From NCBI GenBank assembly GCA_964529765.1, contig CAZHAC010000001.1, forward strand, positions 1-57,968: DNA of 57,968 bases. The letters run 5' to 3'. Of the stretch, positions 460 to 29,963 are shown in pieces (the stretch's first letter is position 1; each line of letters starts with the position of its first letter). The notes below the pieces were generated by a model. The model saw nothing but the letters and a program-made list of their open reading frames with translations. It was not told the DNA's origin and made no database searches. Origin of the DNA: an uncultured Actinomycetes bacterium (GTDB lineage Bacteria; Chloroflexota; Dormibacteria; Dormibacterales; Dormibacteraceae). A program made the position numbers and the translations under genes.

Positions 460-541
460 CCAATTTTGGCCAATTCGGATCCCGATCCAGAGTTGGCAAC
501 GGGACATCGGAGGCCCGAGCTCGGCACAATGCTTGCCTTTG

Positions 542-1783: not shown

Positions 1784-2112
1784 AAGGGGGCCATCGCGAT
1801 GGGCGTGACCCGCCCACGCATCGTGCCTTCGGCCACCTGTGGGTCAGCTTCCATGGCGGCCCTCGCCTCGGCCGCGTCGCCGGCTTCCACCACCACGATG
1901 CCAAGGCCGCCCTCCTCGAGAAGCCGGCCTGCGAAAACGAGCCGGCCGGAATTGTGAAGAGCTCGCAAGTGCTCGAGATGGCGCGCCGATACGGCCTTCT
2001 CCGTCTCGGTCGGATCGGTCACGAAGCCTGGCCGGACCGGCTCCAGCAGGTAGGCGAAGAGAGGCACGGGCGGGAAGCTTAAGGCCGACGCACTAATCTT
2101 TCGGATCTGCAT
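1780..2112 (-). CDS. YciI/YCII-domain-like small protein
   Basis: 110-aa frame from ATG 2112 (alternative GTG 2067). [10 protein letters not shown]...[47 protein letters not shown] resembles YCII-domain proteins. High GC3. Confidence 0.6.
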
Positions 2113-8945: not shown

Positions 8946-10571
8946 ATGAAGATGCGATCAGTCGTTCGTCCCGGTAGACATCGGCTCGCGACCCTGGCGA
9001 CCGCGACCATGCTGCTGGCCAGCTGCGCCGGCGGCACCAATGGCGGCAACGCCTCCAGCACCCCCGTCTACGGTGGCGTGCTGAAGGTCGCGATGGACGC
9101 CGAAAGCCCGGGCTGGGTGCCCGGCTGTGCCACCATCGCCTACGCCGGGGGGTACATCCAATACGCCTGGTTCGACGGCATCACCGACTTCGACAAGAGC
9201 GGCAACACGATTCCCTTCCTGGCCGAGTCGGTCACCCCGAACTCCGATTTCACGCAGTGGACGGTGAAGCTGCGGAGTGGGGTCACCTTCTCCAACGGCA
9301 CGGCGCTTACCGCGCAGTCGCTGAAGGACGACTTCGACAACTACCTGAAAGTCAAGGGTTCCACGGCCGCCAGCCTCGTCGCCACCGTTAAGAGCGCGAC
9401 GGTTAGCGACCCCCAGACGATCGTCTTCGCGATGGCGGCGCCGGTGTCCGACTTCCCTTACACGCTCAGCCAGATCTGGGCGTTCGACCCGGCCACCAAG
9501 GACAAGTACGGGGCTCAGGACTACTGCAGCCACCCGATCGGCACCGGGGCCTTCCAGCTCAGCAGCTGGGACCGCAACAACCTGACCGTCGCCAAGAAGG
9601 TGAGCAGCTACTGGCGCAAGGATGGGAACAACAAGCTGCCCTACCTGGACGAGCTCGACTTCCGGCCCATTCCCAACAGCGACTCCCGATTCGCCGCGCT
9701 CCAGTCCGGTGACGTGGATGCGCTCTTCAGCCGAGACGCCGACACCCTGACGCGTGCCTCCAAGCTGCCCAACATCAAGGTCGCGACCTATGTCGCTAGT
9801 GGCGGCTACGGCCTCTTCTTCAACAACATGAAGGCGCCAGTCGACGACGTACGGGTTCGCCGCGCCCTCTCCGAGGCCACCAACAAACCGGCTGTGGTCG
9901 CCTCGGGCGGCGGCGACAAGCAGTACCAGATCGTTCGCGACGAGTACTACGCTCCCAACAGCCCCTACTACAGCCAGAAGGCCGCCGACGCATCGCCCAA
10001 GTTCGACGTCAACAAGGCGAAAGCCGATATCTCGGCCTACATCAACGATCCCAAACGGAGCGATGGCCAGCCGGTGGGGTCGCCGGTGAAGATCGAGATC
10101 TCGGTCACGCCTGACGCGGCCGCCAACGCCATGGTCCAGGTCGTGCAAGCGGAGTGGCAGCAAATCCAGGGCGTACAGGTGACCATCAACCAGAAGCAGG
10201 AGATCCCCCTTGTGCTTGACGCGATCAAGGGCAACTTCACCGTCAACTGGTTCGGTTGGAGCGACCAGCCGCCGTACTCGCTCTTCTCGCACAACTTCCT
10301 GCCCTATCCCGCCAACACCTCCAACTACGCGCACTTCAACAACGACACAGTGGTCTCGACGATCAATCAGCTGGCCCAGACCAACGATCCCGCCAAGACC
10401 AAGCAGCTGGCTGAGCGAATCCTGATGGTCTTCGCCGACCAGGTGCCGCTCATTCCGCTGACCACGACGCCAGTCGGCATCGCCTACAACACGAAGAAGG
10501 TCCACAACCTGGTGATGCAGCCGTCCTCCGTGGGCCATGTCGACTGGGCCACGGTCTACGTCACCAAGTAG
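8946..10571 (+). CDS. ABC transporter substrate-binding lipoprotein, family 5 (DppA/OppA type)
   Basis: Signal peptide with lipobox LLASCAG. 541 aa, followed by DppBCDF-like genes. Confidence 0.88.
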   Translation: MKMRSVVRPGRHRLATLATATMLLASCAGGTNGGNASSTPVYGGVLKVAMDAESPGWVPGCATIAYAGGYIQYAWFDGITDFDKSGNTIPFLAESVTPNSDFTQWTVKLRSGVTFSNGTALTAQSLKDDFDNYLKVKGSTAASLVATVKSATVSDPQTIVFAMAAPVSDFPYTLSQIWAFDPATKDKYGAQDYCSHPIGTGAFQLSSWDRNNLTVAKKVSSYWRKDGNNKLPYLDELDFRPIPNSDSRFAALQSGDVDALFSRDADTLTRASKLPNIKVATYVASGGYGLFFNNMKAPVDDVRVRRALSEATNKPAVVASGGGDKQYQIVRDEYYAPNSPYYSQKAADASPKFDVNKAKADISAYINDPKRSDGQPVGSPVKIEISVTPDAAANAMVQVVQAEWQQIQGVQVTINQKQEIPLVLDAIKGNFTVNWFGWSDQPPYSLFSHNFLPYPANTSNYAHFNNDTVVSTINQLAQTNDPAKTKQLAERILMVFADQVPLIPLTTTPVGIAYNTKKVHNLVMQPSSVGHVDWATVYVTK

Positions 10572-10610
10572 CCGGCGGAAACGGGTAGTCCAGGAAGGGG
10601 TAGCGGGGTT

Positions 10611-11600
10611 TTGAGGAGAGGTGGCCCCATCACCGGTTTCGCCGCCGCCGCGGCGAAGCGAGGCGGTCGCCTCCTCCTCACCCTGTTCGCCGTGAGCACA
10701 GCGGCCTTCCTGGTTACCTCGCTGATCCCCGGCAACGCCGCCTACCTGATCCTCGGGCCTGCCAACCTGACGCCCGAAAACATCGCCGCGGTCGAGCACG
10801 AGCTCGGCGTCGACGAGCCGCTGCCGCTGCGCTACGTGCACTGGCTCGGGCGCGTGCTGCACGGCGACTTCGGCTACTCCTACGTGCTCAACGACAGCGT
10901 TGGCCGGGAGATTCTCCACCACCTTCCTGTCTCCCTGGAGCTGATCGTTCTCAGCGTGATCATCGCGCTCGTGATCGCGGTTCCGCTCGGCGTGGCCAGC
11001 GCCTACCGGGTCGGGCGACCGATCGACCGCGTAATCTCCGCCCTCACATTCGGGCTGCTGGCGGTACCAGGCTTCGTGATGGCCCTCGTCCTGATCCTGG
11101 TCTTCGCAGTCAGCCTCCACATGCTTCCCTCGACTGGCTGGGTGCGCTTGCAGGAGGACCTGATCGGCAACCTCCAGGCCGCGCTTTTGCCCGCCCTTTC
11201 ACTGTCGGTGTCGCAGCTGGCGGTGTTCACGCGCCTCATGCGAAGCGAGATGATCTCCACCCTCCAGGAGGACTACATCGCCATGGCCCGGGCAAAGGGC
11301 CTGCCGACCCGGCGGATTCTCTTCCTGCACGCCTTCAAGCCCTCGTCCTTCCCGCTCCTGACCCTGGTCGGGATCCAGGTCGGGGTGCTGATCTCGGGCA
11401 CCGTGATCGTGGAGAGCATCTTCGGGCTGCCCGGCATCGGCAGCCTGCTGCTGACCTCGATCTACTCCCACGACTACGCGATGATCCAGGGCGTCACGCT
11501 CTTCGTCGCCACCGGGTTCGTGACCGTCAACTTTGCTGTCGACGCGCTCTACGCGGTGCTCGACCCCCGCGTACGCCGGCAGGGCCTGGCGGCGGCCTAG
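10611..11600 (+). CDS. ABC transporter permease (DppB/OppB type)
   Basis: Multi-span hydrophobic protein. The EAA-loop region is YIAMARAKGLPTRRILFLHAFKPS. The start (TTG 10611) is provisional. Confidence 0.88.
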   Translation: MRRGGPITGFAAAAAKRGGRLLLTLFAVSTAAFLVTSLIPGNAAYLILGPANLTPENIAAVEHELGVDEPLPLRYVHWLGRVLHGDFGYSYVLNDSVGREILHHLPVSLELIVLSVIIALVIAVPLGVASAYRVGRPIDRVISALTFGLLAVPGFVMALVLILVFAVSLHMLPSTGWVRLQEDLIGNLQAALLPALSLSVSQLAVFTRLMRSEMISTLQEDYIAMARAKGLPTRRILFLHAFKPSSFPLLTLVGIQVGVLISGTVIVESIFGLPGIGSLLLTSIYSHDYAMIQGVTLFVATGFVTVNFAVDALYAVLDPRVRRQGLAAA

Positions 11601-11610
11601 GTTTCTCGCG

Positions 11611-12522
11611 ATGGCGACCCCACTTGCCGCCCCGCCTCCGCCGGCCATCGCCGCGCGCTCGGAGGAACCAGCCTGGGGCGTCCTCGGCCGGGGGGCACGC
11701 GGCGCCGCGGGTTACGGTTCCGCTTTCTGGGTCTGCGTGGGCTGGCTGGTCCTTCTCGTGCTGGCGGCGCTGCTCGCCGGCTGGCTGCCCATCGCCAAGC
11801 CCAACGCGGTCGACCCCTTCGTCCGGCTCGAGCCTCCGCTTTCGCCAGGCCACCTGCTGGGGACTGACGACCTCGGCCGCGACGTGCTCAGCCGGATGGT
11901 TTACGGAGCCCGGGTGTCACTCTCAGTGGCCACTCTGTCGGTGGTCATCGGGATGGGCATCGGGCTCCCGGCCGGTATCGCCGCGGGCTACCTGCGTCAT
12001 CGAGTCGATGCCGTCGTCACCTTCCTTGTCGACGTCGTCCTGTCCTTCCCGGCGCTCGTCCTGCTGCTGGCCCTGATCGCTTACTTCGGACGCAGCCTCT
12101 TCATCATCGGCGCCCTGATCGGCTTTCTCTCGGTGCCCACCTACACCCGCATCGCCAGGGCGGCGACTCTGGCGGTGGCCGGCCGGGAGTTCGTCCTCGC
12201 GGCTCGTGCGATCGGTGCCCGCCCGGGCCGGATCATGCTCCGGGAGCTGCTCCCCAACGTCCTTCCGTCGGTCGCGGCCTACGGGCTCATACAGATGGGG
12301 GTTGCGATCGTGGTCGAGGGCTCGCTGAGCTTTCTCGGCCTCAGCGTCTCGCTGCCCACGCCCTCCTGGGGCGGTCTCATTGCGACCGGCCAGCACCACC
12401 TGGACGACGGGCCGACGTTGGTGCTGATCCCGTCTCTGGCGATGTTCCTGACCGTCTTCGCCCTGAACTTCATCGGCGACGGCGTCCGCCGGCGAAGCGA
12501 CCGGCGGGAGGGGGTCCTGTGA
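11611..12522 (+). CDS. ABC transporter permease (DppC/OppC type)
   Basis: ORF 11533.. trimmed to ATG 11611, 10 nt after the previous stop. HLLGTDDLGRDVLSRMVYGARVSL and FVLAARAIGARPGRIMLRELLPN are DppC-type motifs. Confidence 0.88.
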   Translation: MATPLAAPPPPAIAARSEEPAWGVLGRGARGAAGYGSAFWVCVGWLVLLVLAALLAGWLPIAKPNAVDPFVRLEPPLSPGHLLGTDDLGRDVLSRMVYGARVSLSVATLSVVIGMGIGLPAGIAAGYLRHRVDAVVTFLVDVVLSFPALVLLLALIAYFGRSLFIIGALIGFLSVPTYTRIARAATLAVAGREFVLAARAIGARPGRIMLRELLPNVLPSVAAYGLIQMGVAIVVEGSLSFLGLSVSLPTPSWGGLIATGQHHLDDGPTLVLIPSLAMFLTVFALNFIGDGVRRRSDRREGVL

Positions 12523-13526
12523 GCGGCGAACCAGTCCTGGTCGTCGACGGCCTGCAGGTCGAATTCGACTCGCCGAGGGGCACCGTCCACGCGGTCGCCG
12601 GCGTCTCCTTCGAGCTCGACGCGGGCTCGACGCTCGGCATCGTCGGCGAGTCGGGGTCGGGCAAGTCGGTGATGTGCCGGGCGATCATGGGCCTGCTGCC
12701 GGGGCGCCACGTGCATCGTCAAGGGCGGGTCGTGCTCGCGGGAAGGGAGGTCAGCGGCCTCACCGGCGGCGAGCTGCGGGAGCTGCTGGGGCCGGTCGTG
12801 GCGATGGTGCCGCAGCACCCGCGCACCTCTCTTAACCCGGTGCTCACGGTGGGCAGCCAGATCACGGAGTCGCTCCGCCTTCACCTCCGCCTCAGCAGTC
12901 GTGAGGCCACAGAGGAGGCGGTACAGCTGCTCGCCGCCGTCGGCATCCCGGAGCCCGGGCGCCGCTTCAAGCAGTACCCGCACGAGCTCTCGGGGGGTAT
13001 GTGCCAGCGGGTCACGATCGCCATGGCACTGTCCTGCCGTCCCCAGATTTTGATCGCCGACGAGCCGACCACCGCCCTCGACGTCACCGTCCAGGCTCAG
13101 ATCCTCGACCTCTTGAAGCAACTCCAGGTAGAACACCAGATGGCCCTGGTGCTGGTCACGCACGACCTCAGCATCGCTGCCGCCTGCACCGACCGGATCG
13201 CGGTCATGTACGCCGGCCGGTTCGTGGAGGAGGCGCCGACCGGACGGCTCTTCGACTCCATGCGCATGCCGTACACCGAGGCGCTGCTGGCTGCAATTCC
13301 CGACATCGACCGGCCCAGCCACTCGCGCCTGAGGGCGATCGAGGGGCAGCCGCCCGATCTCGCCGGCAAAATGCCCGGCTGCGCATTCGCACCGCGCTGC
13401 CCACACGTCCGGGAGCGGTGCCGCGAGGAAGAGCCGCCCTTGGTGGGCGAGGGCGGCCACCGCTTCGCCTGCTGGTACCCGCTCGCCGTCGACGCTCAAG
13501 CCAGGGTCTCCGCCCATGGCCGGTAG
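12519..13526 (+). CDS. ABC transporter ATP-binding protein (DppD/OppD type)
   Basis: Walker A GESGSGKS, signature LSGGMCQRV, Walker B LIADEPTTALD, and a Cys-rich oligopeptide-type C-terminus. GTGA overlap. Confidence 0.93.
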   Translation: MSGEPVLVVDGLQVEFDSPRGTVHAVAGVSFELDAGSTLGIVGESGSGKSVMCRAIMGLLPGRHVHRQGRVVLAGREVSGLTGGELRELLGPVVAMVPQHPRTSLNPVLTVGSQITESLRLHLRLSSREATEEAVQLLAAVGIPEPGRRFKQYPHELSGGMCQRVTIAMALSCRPQILIADEPTTALDVTVQAQILDLLKQLQVEHQMALVLVTHDLSIAAACTDRIAVMYAGRFVEEAPTGRLFDSMRMPYTEALLAAIPDIDRPSHSRLRAIEGQPPDLAGKMPGCAFAPRCPHVRERCREEEPPLVGEGGHRFACWYPLAVDAQARVSAHGR

Positions 13527-14538
13527 CGGCACCGCCCATCTTCGCCCGGCGACCGACGTGCTCCTGCGCGCCGAACAGGTGGTGGTCGAGTTCCCGGTCG
13601 CCGGCGGCCGCATCCACGCCGTCAGCGGGGTGAGCGTGGACGTCGGGCGCAAGGAGACGCTGGCCCTGGTCGGCGAGTCGGGCTGCGGCAAGTCGAGCCT
13701 GGCCATGGCCATCGCTCAGCTGCCCCGGCCGAACGCTGGGCGGGTCTTTTTGGAGGACACGGAGCTGACCTCTCTGCGCGGGGAGAGGATGCGGCAGGCG
13801 CGGCCGCGGATCCAGGTCGTCTTCCAGGATCCGATCGCGGCGCTCAACCCTCGCCGGACGGTGGCCGAGATCGTCGGCGAGCCCCTGGATGTCTGGAGAC
13901 GCGGCAGCCCAGAGGAAAGGCGGCGGCTGGTCGACTCGACCCTGGAGCGCGTCGGTCTCAATCCCGACCGAGTCCGCGACAAGCGGCCCCCCCAGCTGTC
14001 AGGCGGGCAGTGTCAGCGAGTCGCGATTGCTCGCGCACTGGTCCTCGGCCCCGACGTCCTGATCTGCGACGAGCCCGTGTCCAGCCTCGACGTCTCGATC
14101 CAGGCTCAGGTCTTGAACCTGCTCGAAGACCTGAAGCAGGCGTACGGGTTGACCATGCTCTTCATCTCGCACGACCTGGCGGTGGTGAAGAACGTCGCCG
14201 ATCGCATCGCCGTTATGTATCTGGGCAAGCTCTGCGAGTACGTCGGCCAGGTCGACGACCTCTACCGAGAGCCCGCCCATCCCTACACGGCGATGCTCCT
14301 GGCGTCGGTGCCACGTCGAGCCGTGGGCGGCCTGCGGGCAGTTCCAAAGGGCGAAGCGGCATCCCCGATGGCACCTCCCTCCGGCTGCCGATTCCGCACC
14401 CGGTGCCCACGCGCCGATGCCCGCTGCGCGGCCGAGGAGCCGGGGGTTCGGCAAGTGGCCAGCGGCCACTTCGTCGCCTGCCACCACCCCCTGATCGGTG
14501 CCGACTCCGGCCCTGCACTACAGGAGAACCAGCCATGA
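13516..14538 (+). CDS. ABC transporter ATP-binding protein (DppF/OppF type)
   Basis: GESGCGKS, LSGGQCQRV, LICDEPVSSLD. 11-nt overlap with the previous gene. Confidence 0.93.
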   Translation: MAGSGTAHLRPATDVLLRAEQVVVEFPVAGGRIHAVSGVSVDVGRKETLALVGESGCGKSSLAMAIAQLPRPNAGRVFLEDTELTSLRGERMRQARPRIQVVFQDPIAALNPRRTVAEIVGEPLDVWRRGSPEERRRLVDSTLERVGLNPDRVRDKRPPQLSGGQCQRVAIARALVLGPDVLICDEPVSSLDVSIQAQVLNLLEDLKQAYGLTMLFISHDLAVVKNVADRIAVMYLGKLCEYVGQVDDLYREPAHPYTAMLLASVPRRAVGGLRAVPKGEAASPMAPPSGCRFRTRCPRADARCAAEEPGVRQVASGHFVACHHPLIGADSGPALQENQP

Positions 14539-15383: not shown

Positions 15384-15384
15384 G

Positions 15385-17316
15385 TTGATGGCGACGACCG
15401 CTCAGGTCTCGGATGTCCGCGCCGCCGTGGAAGCGCTGCTCAACCCCCGCAGCGTCGCCTTCCTGGGCGCGTCACGGGATCCGGCGGCGCCGAGCAACAT
15501 GTTCATCGGTCAGCTGACCGCGCCTGGCAGCGGCTTCAACGGGAAGATCTTCCCGATCAACCCCAACGCCGAGGAGATCGCTGGTCACCGCGCCTATCCG
15601 AACGTCGGGGCGGTACCGGAGCCGATCGACGTGGCGGTGGTCATGCAGACCTGGGAGCGGGCGGTGGAGGGGCTCCGCGACTGCGCCGGCGCCGGGGTGA
15701 AGGCGGTGTTCATGCTCTCCGCCGTCCCGCAGGAGCCGGGTCGCTTCAACGACGCCATCCGGGAGGCGATCGCCGGGACGCCGTTGCACGTCCTCGGTCC
15801 CAACTGCCTCGGCACCTACAACCTGCTCGAGAACATCTCCATGACCGCCGGCTTCCCGCCTCCGCGTGGGGCGCACCGGCCGGGCACCGGGGTGGCGGCG
15901 ATCGGCCACAGCGGTGGCTCGCTGCTCGGCGTGGCTTCACATGCGGTGGAGATGGGCGTGCCTTTCTCCTACTTCGTGAGCTGCGGCAACGAGGCCGACC
16001 TCAAGTTCGACGACTTCGTCGACTGGTTCCTCGACCAGCCCGACGTGAAGGTGGTTGTCTGCTACCTGGAGGAGATCCGCCGGCCCCGGCGTCTACTGGC
16101 GCTGGCCGGTCGGGCTCGCGAGCTGGGCAAGAGCATCGTCGCCGTAAAGGTGGGCCAGTCGGAGGAGAGTGCCGCGGTTGCCCTGTCACACACCTACTCG
16201 TTCACGGGGCCCTTCGACATCCAGCTGGCGCACCTGCGCCGGCACGGGATCGTGTGGGCAAACAGCATGTCGCAGGCGGCTGCCTTCATCACGGCGCTTC
16301 GCGCCGAACCGCTGCCGCCTGCCCCGGGAGTAGGAGTTCTGACCACGACCGGTGGCATCTCGGCAACGCTGGCCGAGGTGATGAACCGCAGCGGCGTCCC
16401 GCTTCCCCAAGCGGAACCGGCTTTCGGGCGCATCTACGATCTGCTGGCGCCGTCCAACATGCAGGACCCCCTGGTCCACAACCCGGTCGACCTGGGAGCG
16501 CCCGGTGTCCACAACGACGAGCTCTGGCAAGCGGCCGCGGTCGCCCTCCTCGACCAACCCGAGATTGGCACCCTGCTTGTGGTCACAACCGCCAACACCT
16601 GGAAGGAGCGCATTCCGACCGCCCGGTCGGCGGCGAGCGATCGCGGCAAGGCTCTTTCCGTCTATCTCTATATGACGCAGACGGCGAGCTATAAGAAGGG
16701 CGGCGATCTGCCGATCGGCAACTTCGACGAGCTGGCCGCGGATGGCGTCCCCGTCTTCACCTCCGAAGTCGAGTGTGCGGAGGCCCTTCGGATGCTGATC
16801 GACCGCAGCCGCTTCCTCGCCGAGCCGGCGCCACCGGGTCCGGGCGAGGGTGAGCTCAGCGGACCGGAGACGCTGGTTCCGATCGCCGAGGAGGAGGTCC
16901 TGGCCTGGCTTGGGGCCCACGGGATAGCGGCGGGCACCGCAGCGGGCGCCGAGCCGGAATGGCTGGTAGGGGTCCGCAACGACTTCGGCTTTGGTCCGGT
17001 GGTCAGCGTCCGCGCCGCCGGCGTGCTCGGAGAGGCGGCGGCCGAGGCGGCTCTGATCCCGGCCCCGGCCACCGCTCGAGAGGCCGAGCACGCCATCACC
17101 AGCCTCCGGGCCGCCGCCGCGCTTAAGCGCTACGGCCGCTTCTCCACGCCCGGTCGTGCCGGCCTGGCCGCGTTCGCGGCCGGGTTGAGCAGGCTCGCCT
17201 GGGAGCACCGGAACGACCTCGCCGAGCTCGATCTCGAGCTGGCGGCGGCGAACGATGGCAGCTGGGTGGCGAGGGCTGCTCCGCGCGGCGTCGCTCGTCC
17301 CGGAGGGCTGCGTTGA
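15385..17316 (+). CDS. NDP-forming acyl-CoA synthetase-like / CoA-binding-domain protein
   Basis: LLNPRSVAFLGASRD...GKIFPINPNAEEIAGHRAYPNVGAVPEPIDVAVVM is a CoA-binding domain. It is followed by a succinyl-CoA-synthetase-like flavodoxin domain containing LSHTYSFTG. The C-terminus is Ala-rich and poorly recognisable. Confidence 0.75.
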   Translation: MMATTAQVSDVRAAVEALLNPRSVAFLGASRDPAAPSNMFIGQLTAPGSGFNGKIFPINPNAEEIAGHRAYPNVGAVPEPIDVAVVMQTWERAVEGLRDCAGAGVKAVFMLSAVPQEPGRFNDAIREAIAGTPLHVLGPNCLGTYNLLENISMTAGFPPPRGAHRPGTGVAAIGHSGGSLLGVASHAVEMGVPFSYFVSCGNEADLKFDDFVDWFLDQPDVKVVVCYLEEIRRPRRLLALAGRARELGKSIVAVKVGQSEESAAVALSHTYSFTGPFDIQLAHLRRHGIVWANSMSQAAAFITALRAEPLPPAPGVGVLTTTGGISATLAEVMNRSGVPLPQAEPAFGRIYDLLAPSNMQDPLVHNPVDLGAPGVHNDELWQAAAVALLDQPEIGTLLVVTTANTWKERIPTARSAASDRGKALSVYLYMTQTASYKKGGDLPIGNFDELAADGVPVFTSEVECAEALRMLIDRSRFLAEPAPPGPGEGELSGPETLVPIAEEEVLAWLGAHGIAAGTAAGAEPEWLVGVRNDFGFGPVVSVRAAGVLGEAAAEAALIPAPATAREAEHAITSLRAAAALKRYGRFSTPGRAGLAAFAAGLSRLAWEHRNDLAELDLELAAANDGSWVARAAPRGVARPGGLR

Positions 17317-18230
17317 TCGACGCTCGCCAGTACCTGGATCACCTCCGGGCGGTGGTCGAGATCAACGGCATGCAGGTGTCCGAGATCGTCGCCCCCGCCG
17401 AGCACGAGGTCGTGCTGCGGGGTCTCCGCCTCCACTACCACGATTGGGGGAACGAAGCGGCGCCCCCGCTGCTCTTCCTGCACGGCGGCGGTCTCACGGC
17501 CCACACGTGGGACGTGGTCTGCCTGGCCCTGCGGGCCTACTTTCACTGCCTGGCCCTCGACTTCCGCGGTCACGGCGACAGCGATTGGGCCGAGGTCTAC
17601 GACATCGAGACCCACACCGACGACGTGCGCGCGCTGGTCGAGCATCTTGGAATCGAGCCCGGCCGGCTCCATCTCGCGGGCATGTCGATGGGCGGGATGG
17701 TGGCAGTGCGCTACGCGGGCCGGTTCAACGACCTGGCTTCGCTGACCGTCATCGACGTCGGCCCCGAGCTGCCGCGGAGCGACGGCGCGCGCCGGATCGA
17801 GAACTTCATCGACGGCGCCGAACTGGACTCGATCGACGACTTCATCAAGCGCTCCCTGGCCTTCAACCCGCGCCGCGATCCGGATCTTCTGCGGCAGAGC
17901 CTGCTCCACAACCTGCGCCAGCTGCCGAACGGGAAGTGGACCTGGAAATACGACCGCCGCCACTACCAGCTGGATCGCGACCCGAAAGAGTTCCTGGAGT
18001 TCGTCCGGGCCACCTGGTCGAAGGTCCCGGAGATCAGCTGCCCTGCCCTGGTGGTGAAAGGCGGCGACAGCGACATCCTCTCTGAAGCGACCGCCCGGAG
18101 GCTGGCCGAGTCATTCCCCTCCGGGCGCTACGTGGTGGTGCCCAACGCGGGCCATACCGTACAGGGCGACAACCCGGCCGGCCTCGCCGCCCGCATGCTG
18201 GAGTTCCTGGGCGAGGTGGCGGGGCGGTGA
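17313..18230 (+). CDS. Alpha/beta-fold hydrolase
   Basis: LFLHGGGLTAHTWD, nucleophile elbow GMSMGG and C-terminal NAGHTVQ. TTGA overlap. Confidence 0.88.
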   Translation: MIDARQYLDHLRAVVEINGMQVSEIVAPAEHEVVLRGLRLHYHDWGNEAAPPLLFLHGGGLTAHTWDVVCLALRAYFHCLALDFRGHGDSDWAEVYDIETHTDDVRALVEHLGIEPGRLHLAGMSMGGMVAVRYAGRFNDLASLTVIDVGPELPRSDGARRIENFIDGAELDSIDDFIKRSLAFNPRRDPDLLRQSLLHNLRQLPNGKWTWKYDRRHYQLDRDPKEFLEFVRATWSKVPEISCPALVVKGGDSDILSEATARRLAESFPSGRYVVVPNAGHTVQGDNPAGLAARMLEFLGEVAGR

Positions 18231-19000
18231 CGACGAGGCCGCTGCGGATCCTGCACACGTCCGACCTTCACCTCGGCGATGGATCCGGTACGCCGGGACC
18301 GCTTCGGCACTCGCCCCGCTGCCTCTGTGCTCTGGACGCGCTCGCCGAGGCTGCGGCGCAGTCTGCATCCGACCTCGTGGTAATTGCCGGTGACGTGTTC
18401 GAGAGCGCTCGAGTGCCGGATGCGATCCTGGGAGCTGCGGCAGAGGCGCTGAGCGCCATGTGCGTGCCGGTCGTCGTCCTCCCCGGCAACCACGACCACT
18501 TCGCCGAGGGTTCTCTCTACCATCGCCCAGCCTGGCGGGAAGCCGCCGGCAGGGTCCATGTCATCGGCTCCGAGAGCGGGGAGTGGCTCCGCTTCCCCGA
18601 GCTCGGCCTCAGCTTATGGGGCCGGGCAGTCCACGAACACTCCCCCGACCACCGCCCTCTCCAGGCGGTGCCTGGGCGCCCCGAAGGCGATTGGTTCGTG
18701 GTCGTCGCCCACGGCCACTACCTGGAGGCCCGCGAACTCGCCCCCGGATGGCCCCGGCGCTCGTCGCCGATCCTGCCCGGCGACCTCCACGCCATCAACG
18801 CCGACTACGTCGCCCTCGGTCATTGGGACGTCTGCACGAGGGTCGGCGACAACGGGCTCGAAAGCTGGTACTCAGGCGCCCCGGTGCTGGGCGGAAAGGC
18901 CGCGACCGTCCTTTGCGCCAGCCTCAGCCCTGGCTCGCAAACCCGCGTCGAGCGAGTCCCGATGCCCTCAGGTTCCGATCACTGCTCGAGGAAGGTGTGA
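18227..19000 (+). CDS. Calcineurin-like metallophosphoesterase
   Basis: ILHTSDLHLGD, AGDVFE, LPGNHDH, VVAHGH. GTGA overlaps at both ends. Confidence 0.85.
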   Translation: MTTRPLRILHTSDLHLGDGSGTPGPLRHSPRCLCALDALAEAAAQSASDLVVIAGDVFESARVPDAILGAAAEALSAMCVPVVVLPGNHDHFAEGSLYHRPAWREAAGRVHVIGSESGEWLRFPELGLSLWGRAVHEHSPDHRPLQAVPGRPEGDWFVVVAHGHYLEARELAPGWPRRSSPILPGDLHAINADYVALGHWDVCTRVGDNGLESWYSGAPVLGGKAATVLCASLSPGSQTRVERVPMPSGSDHCSRKV

Positions 19001-20589
19001 TCTTGTCCGACACTCCCAGGACCCTGCCCGCCATCATCGCCGCCCGGGCCGCCAGCGAGCCCAACCGGCCGCTCATCCAGCACGTCGACGGGACCACCGT
19101 CAGCTACGGCGAGCTCCACCACCGCAACCTCCGCTTCGCCGGCGCCTACGCGGCGCTCGGCGTGGGCGAGGGAGACATGGTGGCGACGATGATGCCGAAC
19201 GGCATCGAGACCTACAGCGCCTGGCTGGGGCTCTCGTGGCTGCGGGCGGTGGAGGTCCCCCTCAACGTGGCCTACCAGGGGCCGATGCTCAGCTACACCA
19301 TCAATTACTCGCGGGCGAGCCTGCTGGTGATCAGCGCCGAGTACCTGGAGCGGCTGCGGCCGATCGCCTCCGAGCTCGAGCACCTGCGGACCGTGGTTGT
19401 GCTCGACTCCGATGACGTCGAGGCCGCCCTCCCCTTCAGGCTGGTGACGCGCAGCGAGTTCCTGAAGCCGGCCCCCGCCGGCGAGCTGGCGCCACCCGAG
19501 CTCTGGGACACGGTCGCGCTGATCTTCACCTCGGGGACCACCGGGCGCTCCAAGGGCGTGCTGGTGCCGTGGGGGCAGATGTTCTACAACGTTCGCCCCG
19601 ACCCCACGCTGCTCAACGAGACCGGCGCCTACTACTCGACCTGGCCGACCTTTCACATGTCGGGCAAGTACGCGCTCTATCAGCCGGCGCGGATCGGCGC
19701 CCGGCTGGCTCTCCGGCCCCAGTTCAGTGCCTCGGCCTACTGGGAGGACGTCCGCCGCTTCGGCTGCACGAGCGCGATGATCCTGCCCCCGATGCTCAAG
19801 TTCCTGCTCCTCCAGCCGGAGCTGCCCGACGACCGCGACAACCCGCTGGTCGGGTTCAACCACGGCCCTGTCGTCCCGGAGGTCTGGGAGTTCTGCGAAC
19901 GATTCGGGACCAGGTTCCGATCCGGCTTCGGAATGACCGAGATCGGCGGCCCGCTGCAGACCGGCTGGATGCCCAAGAACCCGAAGTCGAGCGGGCGGCC
20001 GGTCGAGGGGCCGCCCTATTACGACATCAAGGTCGTCGACTCCCACGACGACGAGCTGCCGCCCGGCGAGATTGGCGAGCTGGTGGTCCGGAGCCGGCTG
20101 CCATGGGCGATCATGTCCGGCTACTTCGGATTGCCGGAGGCCACCGCCGCCGCCTGGCGCAATGGTTGGTTCCATACCGGAGACGGCTTTATCAAGGACG
20201 AGGCGGGCGAGTTCTTCTTCGTCGACCGCATGAAGGACTACATCCGGCGGCGCGGCGAGAACATCTCCTCCTTCGAGGTCGAGGCGTACGTTGCCGCCCA
20301 TCCCGCCGTGCTCGAGGTGGCCGCCTTCGGCATTCCGTCCGAGTACGGCGAGGACGAGGTCAAGGTCTGCGTCATCCGGCGGCCGGGCAATGAGGCGCTG
20401 ACGCCCGCCGACCTGCACGCCCAGCTCGCCTCGATCATGCCGTCATTCATGCTGCCGCGCTTCATCGAGTTCGTGGAGGCGCTCCCGCGCACGGATGCCA
20501 CGGGCCGCGTCAAGAAGGTCGAGCTGAAGCCGGACGCCCGCAATGACCGCACGTGGGACCGCGAGGCCGACACCGTCAGGGTCAAGTGA
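18997..20589 (+). CDS. AMP-forming acyl-CoA synthetase/ligase
   Basis: ORF 18460.. trimmed to GTG 18997 (GTGA overlap). FTSGTTGRSKGV, GWFHTGD, RRGENISSFEVE, and the C-terminal GRVKK lysine region. Confidence 0.9.
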   Translation: MILSDTPRTLPAIIAARAASEPNRPLIQHVDGTTVSYGELHHRNLRFAGAYAALGVGEGDMVATMMPNGIETYSAWLGLSWLRAVEVPLNVAYQGPMLSYTINYSRASLLVISAEYLERLRPIASELEHLRTVVVLDSDDVEAALPFRLVTRSEFLKPAPAGELAPPELWDTVALIFTSGTTGRSKGVLVPWGQMFYNVRPDPTLLNETGAYYSTWPTFHMSGKYALYQPARIGARLALRPQFSASAYWEDVRRFGCTSAMILPPMLKFLLLQPELPDDRDNPLVGFNHGPVVPEVWEFCERFGTRFRSGFGMTEIGGPLQTGWMPKNPKSSGRPVEGPPYYDIKVVDSHDDELPPGEIGELVVRSRLPWAIMSGYFGLPEATAAAWRNGWFHTGDGFIKDEAGEFFFVDRMKDYIRRRGENISSFEVEAYVAAHPAVLEVAAFGIPSEYGEDEVKVCVIRRPGNEALTPADLHAQLASIMPSFMLPRFIEFVEALPRTDATGRVKKVELKPDARNDRTWDREADTVRVK

Positions 20590-20608
20590 AAAGGAGGTCG
20601 AAGACGAC

Positions 20609-21427
20609 TTGGGTGACTGGAACACGCTGCTGACCGAGCGGGACGGTGACGTCCTCCACGTGTGGCTCAACCGGCCCGACGCGCGCAACGCGTGGACGGC
20701 CGAGATGCACCACGAATTCGACCGCGTCCTCGACGAGGCGGAGGACGACCCCGGCGTGAAGGTGGTGACGCTGCGTGGGAAAGGCAAGATCTTCTCGGCC
20801 GGGCACGACCTCAAGGAGGTCGCCGGGGGCTATGCGAGCACCGGCCAGCCGGGGGGTTGGAACCCGCACGAAGTGCCTCACATCCGGCGACCGTGGTACT
20901 TCCCCAAGCCGCTCATCGCCGGCGTCCACGGCTATGTGGGGCCGATCGCCTTTGCCATCCTGACCTGCTGCGACTTCATCCTCGCGGTCGACGGCACCCG
21001 CTTCTCGTTCGAGCAAGCCAGGATGGGGGGTGGGGCCCCGGGGGCCAGCCCTCAGGTCTTCCACTTCCGCCCGTCGGTCTGGAAGAAGCTGCTGATGATG
21101 GGCGGCTGGATGGACGCCGGCCAGGCAAAAGACCTCCATTTCGTGGCCCGGGTGCTCGCCGACGAGGCCGCGCTCGACGCCGAGATCCGGCACTGGGCGC
21201 AGCAGCTGGCGCTGGTGCCGTCCAAGCAGGTGCGAGCGGCCAAAGTAGGCATCCATCGCCAGTACGAGCTGATGGGGCTGGCGCGGATGGGCCTGGTCCA
21301 GAACCGGGAGTCGGGCCATGGCTCGCCCGAGGACATGCAGTGGTTCTCGACAGTCATGGATAAGGGGCTCAAGGAGGCGCTGAAGGAGCGCGACGCGCAG
21401 TTCGACCAGGAGGTTTCGCGTGTCTGA
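20609..21427 (+). CDS. Crotonase-fold protein, MenB/BadI-like subfamily (tandem paralog 1)
   Basis: TTG 20609 chosen because AAGGAGG sits at 20591-20597 and the N-terminus (L)GDWNTLL aligns with MGNWETII of paralog 2. 272 aa. Confidence 0.85.
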   Translation: MGDWNTLLTERDGDVLHVWLNRPDARNAWTAEMHHEFDRVLDEAEDDPGVKVVTLRGKGKIFSAGHDLKEVAGGYASTGQPGGWNPHEVPHIRRPWYFPKPLIAGVHGYVGPIAFAILTCCDFILAVDGTRFSFEQARMGGGAPGASPQVFHFRPSVWKKLLMMGGWMDAGQAKDLHFVARVLADEAALDAEIRHWAQQLALVPSKQVRAAKVGIHRQYELMGLARMGLVQNRESGHGSPEDMQWFSTVMDKGLKEALKERDAQFDQEVSRV

Positions 21428-21450
21428 GGCGCGACAAGGAGGAAGCAGCC

Positions 21451-22269
21451 GTGGGTAACTGGGAGACGATCATCGCCGAGAAGGAGGGCCCGATCTACCA
21501 CCTCTGGCTGAACCGCCCAGATGCGCGCAACGCCTGGACGGCGAAGATGCACTGGGAGGTCGACCGGGCGCTCGACGAGGCCGAGGACGACCCCGAGATC
21601 AAGGTGGTCACGCTCCGCGGGAAGGGCAAGATCTTCTCGGCCGGCCACGACCTCAAGGAGGTTGCGGGCGGCTACGCGACCCGTGGCGAGCCGGGCGGCA
21701 TCGATCCTCACCGCGTGCCGGCCATGGAAAGGGCCTGGTACTTCCCGAAGCCGGTCATCGCCGGTGTTCACGGATACGTAGGACCGATCGCCTGGAACTT
21801 CCTCGCCCACCTCGACGTGGTGCTGGCGGTGGAAGGGACGCGCTTTTCGCTCGAGCAGGCGCGGATGGGCGGCGGGGCCCCGGGAGGCACGCCGCTGGTC
21901 CTTCACTTTCCACCGAGCGTCTGGAAAAAGCTGCTGATGGCCGGCGGCTGGATGGATGCCCAGCAGGCGAAGGACTTCCACTTCGTGGCCCGCATAGTCC
22001 CGGATGAGGAGGCTCTCGACCGGGAGATCCGGCACTGGGCGGAGCAGGCCGCGCTGGTCCCCGCCCAGCAGCTGGGAGCGGCCAAGCTCGGCATCCACCG
22101 CCAGTACGACCTGATGGGCCTGGCCAACATGGCGCTGGTCCAGAACCGGGAGTCCGGGCATGGGTCGCCCGAGGACATGAAGTGGTTCACGACCGTGATG
22201 GACAAGGGGCTCAAGGAAGCGCTGAAGGAGCGCGACGCCCAGTTCGACCAGGAGGTATCGAGGGTATGA
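21451..22269 (+). CDS. Crotonase-fold protein, MenB/BadI-like subfamily (tandem paralog 2)
   Basis: GTG start 8 nt after AAGGAGG. 272 aa and co-linear with paralog 1 over its full length. Confidence 0.88.
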   Translation: MGNWETIIAEKEGPIYHLWLNRPDARNAWTAKMHWEVDRALDEAEDDPEIKVVTLRGKGKIFSAGHDLKEVAGGYATRGEPGGIDPHRVPAMERAWYFPKPVIAGVHGYVGPIAWNFLAHLDVVLAVEGTRFSLEQARMGGGAPGGTPLVLHFPPSVWKKLLMAGGWMDAQQAKDFHFVARIVPDEEALDREIRHWAEQAALVPAQQLGAAKLGIHRQYDLMGLANMALVQNRESGHGSPEDMKWFTTVMDKGLKEALKERDAQFDQEVSRV

Positions 22270-23123
22270 CACAGGCTGCTGTGAGGCCAGGGGAGGCACT
22301 TCCCATCCCCACCTACAACACGTTGATCCTGGAGCGCGAGGGGCAGACGCTCCACATCTGGCTCAACCGCCCGGACGCCCGCAACGCCTGGACCGCCGAG
22401 ATGCACCACGAGTTCGATCGCGCCCTCGACTTCGCCGAGGACGATCCGGCGACAAAGGTCGTCGTCGTCCGCGGCAAAGGCAAGATCTATTCCGCCGGCC
22501 ACGATCTGAAGGAGGTTTCAGGGGGCTACGCGACCGAGGGCAAGCCGGGCGGCTGGGATCCCCACGAGATACCGCACATCAACCGCGCCTGGTACCTCAC
22601 CAAGCCGATCATCGCCGGCGTTCACGGCTACGTCGGGCCGATCGCCTGGCACATCACGGCCCACTTCGACTTCGTCCTCGCCGTCCGCGGGACACGATTC
22701 TCCTTCGAGCAGGCGCGGATGGGCGGCGGCGGGCCGGGCGGCACCCCGCTGGTCTTCCACTTCCCGCCGATGGTCTGGAAGAAGCTGCTCATGTTCGGCG
22801 GCTGGATGGACGCCGAGCAGGCGCTGGACTTCAACTTCGTGGCCCGGTTGGTGGAGGATGAGGACGAGCTCGACCGAGAGGTGCGCCATTGGGCTGAGCA
22901 GCTCGCGCTGGTTCCTTCCAAGCAGCTGCGGGCGGCCAAGATCGGCATTCACCGCCAGTACGAGCTCATGGGCCTGGCCGACATGGAGCTGGTCCAGAAC
23001 CGGGAGTCGGGTCACGGCTCGCCGGAGGACATGAAGTGGTTCTCGACGGTGATGGACAAGGGCTTGAAGGAGGCGCTCAAGGAGCGCGACGCCCAGTTCG
23101 ACCAGGAGGTGTCGCGGGTCTAG
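22266..23123 (+). CDS. Crotonase-fold protein, MenB/BadI-like subfamily (tandem paralog 3)
   Basis: ORF 22182.. trimmed to ATG 22266 (ATGA overlap with the paralog 2 stop). 285 aa, with a 13-aa N-terminal extension. Confidence 0.88.
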   Translation: MTQAAVRPGEALPIPTYNTLILEREGQTLHIWLNRPDARNAWTAEMHHEFDRALDFAEDDPATKVVVVRGKGKIYSAGHDLKEVSGGYATEGKPGGWDPHEIPHINRAWYLTKPIIAGVHGYVGPIAWHITAHFDFVLAVRGTRFSFEQARMGGGGPGGTPLVFHFPPMVWKKLLMFGGWMDAEQALDFNFVARLVEDEDELDREVRHWAEQLALVPSKQLRAAKIGIHRQYELMGLADMELVQNRESGHGSPEDMKWFSTVMDKGLKEALKERDAQFDQEVSRV

Positions 23124-23145
23124 CCCGCCAAACGTAGGTAATCCG

Positions 23146-23889
23146 ATGTTTCGGTTCGACGGCCGCGTCGTTCTCGTCACCGGCGGGACGCGCGGCCTCG
23201 GACGGGCCATTGCCGAGGGCTTCGCGACCGCCGGCGCCGACGTCGGCCTGGTGAGCCGCAAGCCCGAGGCCCTGGCCGCTGCCGCGACTGCGATCGCGGC
23301 CGCCGGCCGGCGGCGGGTGGAATGGTTTCCGTGCAACGTGTCCCACTGGGACGCGCTGGAGCCGCTGATCGACGCGGTCTACGAGCGTTTCGGCCGCCTC
23401 GACGTGCTCGTCAACAACGCCGGCCTGTCGCCCCTCTACGACTCACCGGCAGCGATAACGGAGGCGCTCTTCGACAAAGTCGTTGGCGTCAACCTCAAGG
23501 GCCCGCTTCGTCTCTGTGCGCTGGCCGGCGAGCGGATGGCGGCGGCAGGCGGCGGGGTGATCATCAACATGAGCAGCACAGTCGCGCGTAACCCGAGACC
23601 GAACGTCATCCCGTACGCGGCGGCCAAGGCCGGGGTCGAGGCGATGACCACCGCTTTCGCGCACGCCTACGGGCCCGCGGTGCGGGTCAACTGCATCGTC
23701 CCAGGTCCCTTCCTCACCGACGTCAGCCGGCACTGGGACATGGAGCACATGGAGCGCTGGGCGACCGGCTTTGCGCTCCGCCGCCTGGGCAGGCCAGAGG
23801 AGATCGTGGGCGCGGCCCTCTACCTCGCCTCTGACGCCGCGTCCTACACGACCGGCATCATGCTCGAGGTGGCCGGCGGGGAACCCTAG
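23146..23889 (+). CDS. Short-chain dehydrogenase/reductase (FabG-like)
   Basis: VTGGTRGLGRAIA, VNNAG, YAAAKAG. 247 aa. Confidence 0.9.
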   Translation: MFRFDGRVVLVTGGTRGLGRAIAEGFATAGADVGLVSRKPEALAAAATAIAAAGRRRVEWFPCNVSHWDALEPLIDAVYERFGRLDVLVNNAGLSPLYDSPAAITEALFDKVVGVNLKGPLRLCALAGERMAAAGGGVIINMSSTVARNPRPNVIPYAAAKAGVEAMTTAFAHAYGPAVRVNCIVPGPFLTDVSRHWDMEHMERWATGFALRRLGRPEEIVGAALYLASDAASYTTGIMLEVAGGEP

Positions 23890-23892
23890 CGA

Positions 23893-25653
23893 CTACGCGC
23901 CTTCCTGAAGTTCTTCCGGGAGGTCGACGATCCGCGAGCGCAGGTATTCACCGAGGCTCTTCGCCTGCGGGTCGTGTCGAGTCGATGAGCTGACGCCCTT
24001 GCCAAGGAGGCCCACGACCACGAAGTTCAGGGCGCGCAGGTTTGGCAGCCGGTAGCGCCGCACCTCGAGGTCGCGCGCCTCGGGCACGAGGTCCTTGAAC
24101 TGGGCGGTAGTCAGGAAGGCGTCGAGCCAGGCGAACGCCTGCTCGCTGCGCGCCCAGACGCCGACGTTGGCGTTGCCGCCTTTGTCGCCTGAGCGGCTGC
24201 CGGCGACGGTTCCGAGCGGAGACCTGACTGTACGGCCGGCAGACTCCGTGCGGGGCATGCCCGGATCCGGCTCATCGTGAGACACCCAACGCCGCCGCGG
24301 CTCCCGCACCGGAAGCCGCCGTCCGTCCTCCAGCACCACCTCCTGTCTGACCGCGCTCGCCGGGATGAGGCCAGGCCAGTAGACGCCGAAAGGTGTCTCG
24401 GACGTAGGCGGGGTCGTGGTGTAGAAGCCCGGATAACTGGAGAGCGCCATCTCGATCACCCGGTTGCTGAAGGCCCGTCCGACCTTCTTGGAATCGCGGT
24501 CTTTGACCTGCACCCGCAGGTAGGCGGTGGCTCCCTCGTTGGTTTCGCTATCCGGTTGATCCGGCCGGAGCAGCTGCACGTCGACCTCGTCGAAGGCTGT
24601 TTCGCCACCGAGCTCAGCAAAGAGCGTCTGTTGGGCGAGCGCCGCCTTGGCCTCGACATCCAGGCCGGTGAGCGCGAAGGTCATGGAGTTGCGATAACCG
24701 CCCAGGTAGTTGACCGAGACCTTGAGGTCGTGCGGCGCGGGCTCGCCGCGGACATCCGAGATCCGCACGCGGTCCGGCCCCTCGGCCTCGAGTCGGATGG
24801 AGTCGAACCGGCTGATCACGTCGGGGCCCAGATAGCGTGGCCCGTCGATCTCGTAGAGGAGCTGCGCGGTGACGGTGCCGACCGTCACCGACCCCCCGGT
24901 CCCTGGGTGCTTGGTGATCACCGAGGAGCCGTCCGGGTACACCTCGGCGATCGGGAAGCCGGGATGCACGAGGCCGGGCACCTCCCGAAAGAAGCTGTAG
25001 TTGCCGCCCGTGGCCTGGGGCCCGCACTCGATGACATGGCCGGCGACGACCGCGCCGGCGAGCCGGTCCCAGTCGTCGAGCGCCCATCCGAAGCGCCAGG
25101 CCGCCGGCCCCACCACGAGCGACGCATCGGTCACCCGCGGCGTGATGACGACGTCGGCGCCGGCGGCCAGCGCTTCCACGATTCCCCAGGCACCGAGGTA
25201 GGCGTTGGCGGTCACGGGTTGGAAGCCGGACTCGGCCAGGGGACGGCCGTCGAGTGCGCTCCGGAGCGTCTGGCCGAGCTCCGCCAGGCGCGGCTGGAGG
25301 TCGTCGCCCTCGACGTGGGCGACGCGCAGCGGCAGGCCGAGCCGGGCGACCAGCTCGCGAACCTTCGCCGCCAGCCCGGCCGGGTTCAAACCGCCGGCAT
25401 TGGCGACGACCTTGATCCCGCGTTCGGCACATGTTCCCAGGACCTCCTCCATCTGGCGCAGGAAGGAGGTCGTGTAACCCGCGGTCGGGTCCTTCAGCTT
25501 GGCCCAGTAGAGGATCAGCATCGTCAGCTCGGCAAGGTATTCGCCGGTCAGAAAGTCGATCGGGCCGCCCTCCACCATTTCGCGGGCCGCCGCCAGCCGA
25601 TCGCCGTAGAAGCCGGAGCAGTTGGCAATCCGGACCGGCCCGGCGGCGACCAT
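23893..25653 (-). CDS. atuA: AtuA-like protein (DUF1446, acyclic terpene utilisation family)
   Basis: ORF 23893..26070 trimmed to ATG 25653 (GGGAGG 6 nt upstream, 3 nt after the upstream stop). MVAAGPVRIANCSGFYGDRLAAAREMVEGGPIDFLTGEYLAELTM is the DUF1446 N-terminus. 586 aa, similar in size to AtuA as I remember it. Confidence 0.8.
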   Translation of the reverse strand: MVAAGPVRIANCSGFYGDRLAAAREMVEGGPIDFLTGEYLAELTMLILYWAKLKDPTAGYTTSFLRQMEEVLGTCAERGIKVVANAGGLNPAGLAAKVRELVARLGLPLRVAHVEGDDLQPRLAELGQTLRSALDGRPLAESGFQPVTANAYLGAWGIVEALAAGADVVITPRVTDASLVVGPAAWRFGWALDDWDRLAGAVVAGHVIECGPQATGGNYSFFREVPGLVHPGFPIAEVYPDGSSVITKHPGTGGSVTVGTVTAQLLYEIDGPRYLGPDVISRFDSIRLEAEGPDRVRISDVRGEPAPHDLKVSVNYLGGYRNSMTFALTGLDVEAKAALAQQTLFAELGGETAFDEVDVQLLRPDQPDSETNEGATAYLRVQVKDRDSKKVGRAFSNRVIEMALSSYPGFYTTTPPTSETPFGVYWPGLIPASAVRQEVVLEDGRRLPVREPRRRWVSHDEPDPGMPRTESAGRTVRSPLGTVAGSRSGDKGGNANVGVWARSEQAFAWLDAFLTTAQFKDLVPEARDLEVRRYRLPNLRALNFVVVGLLGKGVSSSTRHDPQAKSLGEYLRSRIVDLPEELQEGA

Positions 25654-25655
25654 GC

Positions 25656-29946: not shown

Positions 29947-29963
29947 GGGCGGTGGGACTGCGG

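Follow-up and report, generated by a model that had tools for sequence, protein, structure and literature searches.

Why does a single stretch of bacterial DNA encode three similar crotonases in immediate succession, and do these proteins differ in what they do? The question is raised by positions 20,609 to 23,123 of contig CAZHAC010000001.1 (GenBank assembly GCA_964529765.1), from an uncultured bacterium recorded under Actinomycetes and assigned by GTDB to the Dormibacteraceae; we call the whole stretch analysed, 57,968 nucleotides long, the window. An earlier interpretation made from the letters alone, hereafter the sequence-only reading, had described three consecutive co-linear crotonase genes for proteins of 272, 272 and 285 amino acids, and the open reading frames confirm them: P1 (20609..21427, forward strand, TTG start with AAGGAGG upstream as Shine-Dalgarno sequence), P2 (21451..22269, forward, GTG start) and P3 (22266..23123, forward), whose ATG start overlaps the P2 stop as ATGA, so that the proposed translational coupling of P2 and P3 stands. 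The fourth paralog announced by the same reading, P4 (14535..15383, forward, 282 amino acids, with an ATG overlapping the stop of an upstream ATPase gene), is also real; it belongs to the same clade and is older. All four proteins match the Pfam family ECH_1 (PF00378) with 81-114 bits against a cut-off of 27 (E 1e-22 to 1e-32). The answer that we consider likely is that P1-P3 result from a lineage-specific tandem triplication, and that the three maintained copies, within a presumably catabolic, coenzyme A (CoA)-dependent operon, catalyse the same type of reaction with diverged acyl specificity.

Age and maintenance of the triplication

An assembly artefact, which the sequence-only reading had left as a possibility, is ruled out. 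Two further assemblies, ENA ERZ1758404 from forest soil (L001) and Logan SRR28401742 from another run (L002), are 100% identical to the window across the gene junctions. A diverged orthologous triple exists as well: a JGI contig (L007) carries a collinear three-gene array at 88% DNA identity to the window, with the following short-chain dehydrogenase/reductase (SDR) gene kept, also at 88%, and the gene table of a second JGI sample lists these genes in the same sequence, with a P2 orthologue 96% identical at the protein level. Moreover, no two copies share an identical stretch longer than 32 nt.

The three proteins share 76.8-78.7% of their amino acids in pairwise comparisons, in agreement with the three quarters estimated by eye, and 77-79% of their DNA, whereas P4 is only 54-57% identical to them. 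A neighbour-joining tree built from 122 family sequences gives the branching order (P2,(P1,P3)), pairs each copy with its positional orthologue in L007 and makes the single-copy P0004 the sister of the triple; P4 is placed in a separate, older sub-clade with P0043, P0054 and P0091. We calculated nonsynonymous (dN) and synonymous (dS) divergence by the Nei-Gojobori method. Between orthologues (window versus L007), dS is 0.42-0.51 and dN/dS 0.056-0.084 (P1 0.084, P2 0.056, P3 0.080); between paralogs within the window, dS reaches 0.63-0.83 and dN/dS 0.19-0.26. Because the copies pair by position and paralog dS exceeds orthologue dS, the triplication is older than the split between the window and L007 lineages. 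Each copy has been separately maintained under strong purifying selection, and protein divergence accelerated after duplication.

The sequence-only reading had also seen in the repeat a recombination-prone locus, a view that finds little support here. Quartet site patterns comprise 83-94 orthology-type sites, 2-7 scattered genome-type sites and 2-5 sites of the third, homoplastic pattern, and no concerted evolution or gene conversion since the window/L007 split is detectable in them. A likeness of copies 1 and 3 of L007 seen in sliding windows did not hold up in the quartet test. Scans of GTDB genomes for copy-number variation yielded only single-copy family members with at most 57% identity to P2, and a metagenome scan for close relatives gave none close among the matches listed.

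Could the array simply raise dosage, its copies being equivalent, or consist of decaying redundant genes of which one or two are becoming pseudogenes? Dosage selection is a frequent origin of tandem duplicates, and the same invariant residues are found in all three copies. Nevertheless, the copies are old, as their mutual dS indicates, every one of them has also been kept in a second lineage (dN/dS 0.06-0.08), none of P1-P3 has a frameshift or premature stop codon, and 50 positions are fixed within each orthologue pair yet different between copies, that is, they carry copy-specific substitutions fixed in both lineages. This makes dosage or decay very improbable as an explanation of the array.

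The L007 contig starts just upstream of P1, so that the comparison with the window covers the array from P1 onwards. At the other end, synteny between the window and L007 stops exactly at the SDR stop codon (window 23890; L007 3351-5013), beyond which a Transposase_mut gene follows in L007 and a convergent AtuA gene in the window. Since synteny ends there and different genes follow, the block made of the triple plus the SDR gene seems to sit at a rearrangement breakpoint.

A crotonase clade with its own residue pattern

To which branch of the crotonase superfamily do these proteins belong? The best NCBIfam models are generic ones, PRK08272 and PRK08290, whose scores of 110-128 bits are less than half the cut-offs (257 and 280). 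An AlphaFold2 (AF2) monomer model of P2 (predicted local distance difference test, pLDDT, 91.8) has the spiral beta-beta-alpha core and C-terminal helical domain of the superfamily, and the top Foldseek matches of this model are all crotonases, with template modelling (TM) scores up to 0.83 and the best at about 0.8 (4k29, 3njb, 4jyj, 3rrv). In alignments, the segments FSAGHDL and GVHGYVGP(I/M)A correspond to both oxyanion-hole strands of PaaF, MenB, CaiD and ScpB. Compared with solved structures, a family profile (A1, 68 members) scores 155 bits with 4k29, 134 with 3ome and 132 with 3t3w, 113 with EchA8, 94-98 with MenB structures and 93 with rat enoyl-CoA hydratase (ECH).

Across 115 homologues (P2 numbering), the invariant or near-invariant residues are R22, P23, R26, N27, G57, G59, G65, H66, D67, W96, Y97, K100, H107, G111, P112, D122, A126, T130, F132, S133, E135, R138, G165, G166, W167, R181, W196, R217, G223 and R261. 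All 24 family-invariant residues are present in each of P1, P2 and P3, so that no copy looks like a pseudoenzyme. Near-invariant positions are changed in P1 (P154R), P2 (F123V, E220D) and P3 (F62Y), and all four changes are fixed in the L007 orthologues. The motifs quoted by the sequence-only reading are all found in the sequences, and its statement that these are not ordinary hydratases agrees with the active-site positions. The catalytic pair of canonical hydratases is formed by rat Glu144 and Glu164, equivalent to DspI Glu126 and Glu146 (PMC5834635). At the Glu144 position, which varies across the clade, P1-P4 have A, N, H and H, respectively, while the Glu164 position is a Gln (Gln136), with an invariant glutamate, Glu135, one residue earlier. 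Thus, none of P1-P4 has the two catalytic glutamates by which a canonical enoyl-CoA hydratase (EC 4.2.1.17) is recognized. P1-P4 appear to belong to a distinct, uncharacterised crotonase clade; our literature search for a characterised member found none, only general descriptions of the fold.

The clade shares with the canonical hydratases (rat ECH, Escherichia coli PaaF, Mycobacterium tuberculosis EchA8) the fold, the CoA-ester motifs and the oxyanion strands. It differs from them by the replacement of GGG by GP(I/M)A and of the Asn of VNG by an invariant His, by a 7-residue insertion in the C-terminal region, and by the lack of both catalytic glutamates. The closest structures are structural-genomics entries, 4k29 from Xanthobacter autotrophicus, 3ome and 3njb from Mycobacterium smegmatis and 3t3w from M. 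thermoresistibile, without assigned function and about 25-28% identical to the clade. Of these, 3ome and 3t3w have the FSAGHDL motif in common with the clade but lack His107 and Glu135, whereas 4k29 has an extended C-terminus with a G-L-x-x-A-x-x-x-R-D-A-x-F motif, as in the clade, but keeps both canonical Glu positions (ACE, FGEPE).

The sequence-only reading had placed the genes in the branch of MenB and BadI, whose enzymes carry out Dieckmann or retro-Claisen C-C chemistry. Like the clade, both have the crotonase fold, and MenB has a loop of equal length with Gly-Gly-Tyr after the first oxyanion strand, matched in the clade by a 'GGY' in a Gly/Pro-rich loop as long as the MenB A-loop; in addition, the hydratase Glu pair is absent from the clade. 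Ring-cleaving chemistry would not be absurd either, since some distant clade members adjoin Baeyer-Villiger-type monooxygenases and esterases, and a cluster resembling the Atu genes of terpene utilisation lies next to the operon in the window. However, the menB models TIGR01929 and PRK07396 give P4 77 and 82 bits against cut-offs of 342.7 and 380, the badI model TIGR03210 gives it 75 bits against 467.6, and for P1-P3 these models fall outside the top 25. Profile and structure searches place MenB no closer than ordinary hydratases: in hhalign with the family profile, PaaF scores 161.5, the best of the E. coli references tested and above MenB (144.6), and there are no MenB structures among the top 50 Foldseek matches of the P2 model. 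P2 is 23% identical to E. coli MenB and 27% to PaaF (25% to PaaG, 26% to CaiD, 22% to ScpB). In MenB, Asp163 is catalytically essential and Tyr97 and Tyr258 are strictly conserved (PMC3637252); in the clade, Asp163 aligns to a 2-residue deletion, Tyr258 to a Gly and Tyr97 (by hhalign) to a variable non-Tyr position, and the Tyr75 of the clade 'GGY', which aligns with MenB Tyr94, is not invariant. MenB also has a C-terminal helix that reaches across the trimer-trimer interface to the active site of the opposite subunit, and for the P2 monomer model the best structural matches are 4k29, 3njb, 4jyj and 3rrv. The hidden Markov model (HMM) cut-offs, hhalign, Foldseek and the lost catalytic residues exclude membership in the MenB/BadI family, and MenB/BadI-type chemistry is hardly credible for the clade. 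That placement rested on a superficial likeness in one loop. Nor is the stretch after FSAGHDLKEV that had been noted as an insertion truly one, as K69-P101 counts 33 residues compared with 29 in PaaF, 33 in MenB and 35 in PaaG, with 4 extra residues at most; the gap relative to PDB entry 5zai is of only 2 residues.

Two other known enzymes deserve mention. No entry for 6-oxocamphor hydrolase, a CoA-independent enzyme of retro-Claisen chemistry, was present among the best 60 PDB sequence matches or the top 50 Foldseek matches, with no direct alignment made. The E. coli methylmalonyl-CoA decarboxylase ScpB/YgfG shares with the clade the FSAGHD motif, the oxyanion His (His66) and the F-S after the third strand, but at 22% identity it has the lowest hhalign score of the three references (117.8). 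Its Tyr140, reportedly implicated in decarboxylation in work by Benning and colleagues in 2000, falls where the clade has a 2-residue deletion, and a decarboxylase of this type was rejected on these grounds.

Divergent cores and near-identical C-termini

If the three copies are alike in their invariant residues, where do they differ? The differences are concentrated in the N-terminal strands (10-12 pairwise differences in residues 1-20), in the loop 72-95 (8-10 out of 24) and in the helix 113-124 after the second oxyanion strand (5-8 out of 12), and only 3-4 occur in the last 50 residues (Fisher p 0.001-0.005). In crotonases, the helix that corresponds to 113-124 bears the first catalytic residue and, with the preceding loop, would shape the acyl pocket. 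The change described for P2 in this segment by the sequence-only reading is real, although it is not confined to P2: the helix differs in all three copies (FAILTCCDF in P1, WNFLAHLDV in P2, WHITAHFDF in P3). From this distribution, it is probable that all three share one reaction type but accept different, related acyl groups.

At the opposite extreme, P1-P3 all end in the same 22 residues (DKGLKEALKERDAQFDQEVSRV). The 3' ends had been called almost identical even in DNA, which overstates the case: the last ~120 nt are 88-93% identical, compared with 77-79% over whole genes, and the differences within them are mainly synonymous. The dS of the last 50 codons is 0.57-0.69, similar to that of the whole genes (0.63-0.83). 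Gene conversion was rejected as the cause of the similar 3' ends on account of this equal dS and of the orthology-dominated quartets; the undiminished C-terminal dS suggests instead that selection keeps the segment alike.

What would such selection preserve? The C-terminal helices of crotonases form the trimerisation domain and a lid over the neighbouring subunit (PMC5834635), and co-expressed P1-P3, possibly with P4, might form mixed trimers or hexamers in which active sites are completed by the C-terminus of another paralog. The array would then encode one heteromeric enzyme and not three separate enzymes. Several observations point in this direction. The P1-P3 genes lie close together or overlap within one operon, and P4-type and P1-3-type genes are kept side by side as a pair in other metagenome-assembled genomes (MAGs). 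The C-terminal 50 residues are 92-94% identical among P1-P3, against 73-74% for the remainder. In 782 other family pairs, whose residues 1-222 are 65-85% identical, conservation of the last 50 residues falls short of that of the rest by 10 points on average (standard deviation, SD, 7), whereas in P1-P3 it is 19-20 points higher. A pair of paralogs resident together in another contig, L261, follows the same pattern: dN is 0.035 over the last 50 codons but 0.262 in the rest of the genes, and dS is alike in both parts (0.60 and 0.64). The near-identical C-terminal trimerisation region of P1-P3 would thus be compatible with mixed oligomers. Against this, crotonases are described as typically homo-oligomeric. 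The nearest precedent for hetero-association is E. coli PaaF-PaaG, two crotonase-fold enzymes encoded side by side and physically associated (PMC4498308). Unlike P1-P3, however, these two enzymes are distantly related and differ in the reactions that they catalyse, and in their complex homotrimeric discs stack without mixing subunits (PMC4498308). Our literature search for heteromeric crotonases returned PaaF-PaaG alone and no precedent for mixed trimers of paralogs that are 77-79% identical. A rule by which co-resident paralogs always freeze their C-terminus holds for P1-P3 and L261 but fails elsewhere: in the co-resident pair P0086/P0099 the C-terminus is not conserved (0.58, compared with 0.79 in the remainder), and P4 has no excess within-genome C-terminal similarity to P1-P3. 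The pattern is equally explained by a baseline constraint on the C-terminus combined with accelerated change of the core after duplication. We therefore regard mixed oligomers as rather unlikely.

A bolder version would see in the clade a new type of crotonase, with one Glu and two His, whose tandem paralogs co-assemble, the C-terminus being frozen while the cores diverge, and thereby build combinatorial composite sites for imported carboxylates. This we hold to be quite unlikely; were it true, the ABC (ATP-binding cassette) importer, CoA ligase or synthetase, alpha/beta hydrolase and metallophosphoesterase would mark the pathway that such enzymes serve.

Two loci of other origin bear on co-resident paralogs. 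In L261 (JGI 3300066520), the paralogs lie at 10001-10822 and 12452-13285 on both sides of an SBP_bac_5 gene, among genes for a luciferase-like (LLM-type) monooxygenase, riboflavin synthesis, a nucleoside diphosphate (NDP)-forming acyl-CoA synthetase and a peptide-type ABC importer. Two short contigs, L266 (1-1049, JGI 3300060150) and L267 (1-1135, JGI 3300060351), overlap at 99.7%, so that P0078 (272 amino acids) and P0039 (285 amino acids) form a tandem clade pair in another organism. The 3' 559 nt of these two genes are 95.7% identical and their last 195 nt identical, while the 5' parts are far apart, a homogenisation that would indicate recent gene conversion or an assembly chimera.

A CoA-dependent operon and its counterparts in relatives

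What might the three enzymes act on? They are encoded in a head-to-tail run of 14 forward-strand genes (8946-23889) joined by 4-nt start/stop overlaps or short gaps. The run begins with an ABC importer (8946..14538) made of a NikA/peptide-type SBP_bac_5 binding protein, two permeases and two ATPases (Pfam; nikA-like in NCBIfam, 129 bits). Then come P4, an NDP-forming (ADP-forming) acyl-CoA synthetase (15385..17316; Pfam CoA_binding_2, Succ_CoA_lig and ATP-grasp_5; TIGR02717, 222 bits), an alpha/beta-fold hydrolase (17313..18230; Pfam Abhydrolase, with weak matches to enol-lactonase and polyhydroxyalkanoate (PHA)-depolymerase models) and a metallophosphoesterase (18227..19000; Pfam Metallophos). 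Directly 5' of P1 lies an AMP-forming acyl-CoA ligase (18997..20589; Pfam AMP-binding; NCBIfam PRK06155 at 459 bits, below cut-off), and after P1-P3 the SDR gene (23146..23889; Pfam and NCBIfam SDR matches) closes the run. The 4-nt overlaps (ATGA, GTGA, TTGA) at 14535, 17313, 18227, 18997 and 22266 would imply serial translational coupling in one long operon, and neither an Rfam element nor a terminator signal above chance turned up in a scan of 8946-23889. The neighbours do not allow a substrate to be named, since none of ligase, synthetase, hydrolase, phosphoesterase, SDR and binding protein has an equivalog-level NCBIfam match.

The operon is flanked by genes for CoA-transferases, thiolases, acyl-CoA dehydrogenases and further crotonases, and by an AtuA/carboxylase cluster. 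The latter, an Atu/Liu-like cluster on the reverse strand (23893-30566), converges on the operon. Its products are an enoyl-CoA hydratase, a TetR regulator, an AtuA family protein that has its ferredoxin-like domain, and two carboxylase subunits, the alpha subunit being a biotin carboxylase with a BT domain and the beta subunit a carboxyltransferase. Counterparts of this carboxyltransferase in diverse Actinomycetota MAGs share 67-76% identity with it, which makes the host an uncultured soil actinomycete without a closely related genome. Three extra crotonase genes, at 3195-4031 (reverse), 7989-8789 (forward) and 25656-26420 (reverse), bring the total to seven in 58 kb. By alignment, two of the three lack both canonical catalytic glutamates and the third has the second only; the gene at 7989-8789 also has a V-H-G motif. 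Upstream, at 329-3198, lie two family III CoA-transferase genes.

Relatives of the array share parts of this arrangement. Four actinobacterial MAG contigs (L010-L013) contain, in this order, an ABC importer, a P4-like protein (80-81%), a single-copy P0004-like protein 72% identical to P2, an NDP-forming synthetase, a hydrolase and a metallophosphoesterase; in L011-L013 the P4 orthologue stands directly upstream of this single-copy sister of P1-P3. Such pairing makes it likely that one P4-type gene and one P1-3-type gene, side by side, were the ancestral arrangement.

Beyond these contigs, a homologous AMP-forming ligase directly adjoins single-copy family members in L008, L009, L014, L016 and L181, and a family III CoA-transferase gene directly adjoins family members in L018, L023 and L094-L096; the transferase gene is directly upstream in the first two and translationally coupled to the clade crotonases in the other three. 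An NDP-forming synthetase lies beside family members in L186 and L261 and is syntenic with the P4-type genes in L010-L013. Altogether, one or other of these CoA-activating genes accompanies family members at more than 12 independent loci, and coupling to CoA activation appears to be the one constant of the clade neighbourhoods. An SBP_bac_5-type transporter is found beside family members in L011, L182, L186, L261 and a JGI 3300047160 contig, and an alpha/beta hydrolase recurs in L011-L013 and L094. A metallophosphoesterase also recurs beside clade members in unrelated contigs (L011-L013, L094, L182, L024), often together with an alpha/beta hydrolase.

In the window lineage, the P1-3-type gene stands behind an AMP-forming ligase and has been tripled, and the SDR gene follows the array. 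These elements suggest a tentative scheme. The ligase or the synthetase would activate an imported carboxylic acid as its CoA thioester, and the crotonases would stabilise the thioester enolate in the usual backbone oxyanion hole, formed by the NH groups of His66 and residue 113. Chemistry would proceed through the single invariant Glu135 with His66 and His107 and not through the two-Glu machinery; this replacement of the Glu pair would favour isomerisation, beta-elimination/addition, hydration-cleavage or another reaction that needs a single base over classical syn-hydration. For the clade as a whole, we infer an acyl-CoA enzyme that stabilises an enolate and relies on one carboxylate and one or two histidines.

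Several points weigh against the explanation by specificity divergence within one reaction type. No clade member has a characterised substrate or reaction, and the chemistry is read only from residue patterns in alignments and from one AF2 monomer model. The role of the divergent segments in the acyl pocket likewise comes from general knowledge of crotonases and not from a liganded structure of the clade. The near-identity of the C-termini, about 4 SD above the family norm, is not predicted by simple divergence in specificity and could reflect co-assembly. Finally, distant members occur in heterogeneous contexts (cytochrome P450, Baeyer-Villiger monooxygenase, LLM monooxygenase, HpcH aldolase, amine oxidase), which makes a single substrate class unlikely. 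Even so, a maintained tandem triplication with one reaction type and diverged acyl specificity is the explanation that we favour.

Crotonase paralog expansions are commonplace in actinomycetes, and the triplication described here is an ordinary gene-family expansion, whose residue set and frozen C-termini are worth a note. The value of the analysis lies largely in clean-up: a tempting MenB/BadI annotation is removed, and the repeat is recognized as a genuine, stable and selected expansion. Co-resident copies whose cores have diverged while their C-termini stayed frozen offer a testable handle on mixed crotonase oligomers. The clade itself lacks the hydratase Glu pair, has an invariant set of its own (His66, Trp96, Lys100, His107, Glu135 and Arg261) and recurs beside CoA-activating genes, which makes it a sensible choice for enzyme discovery.

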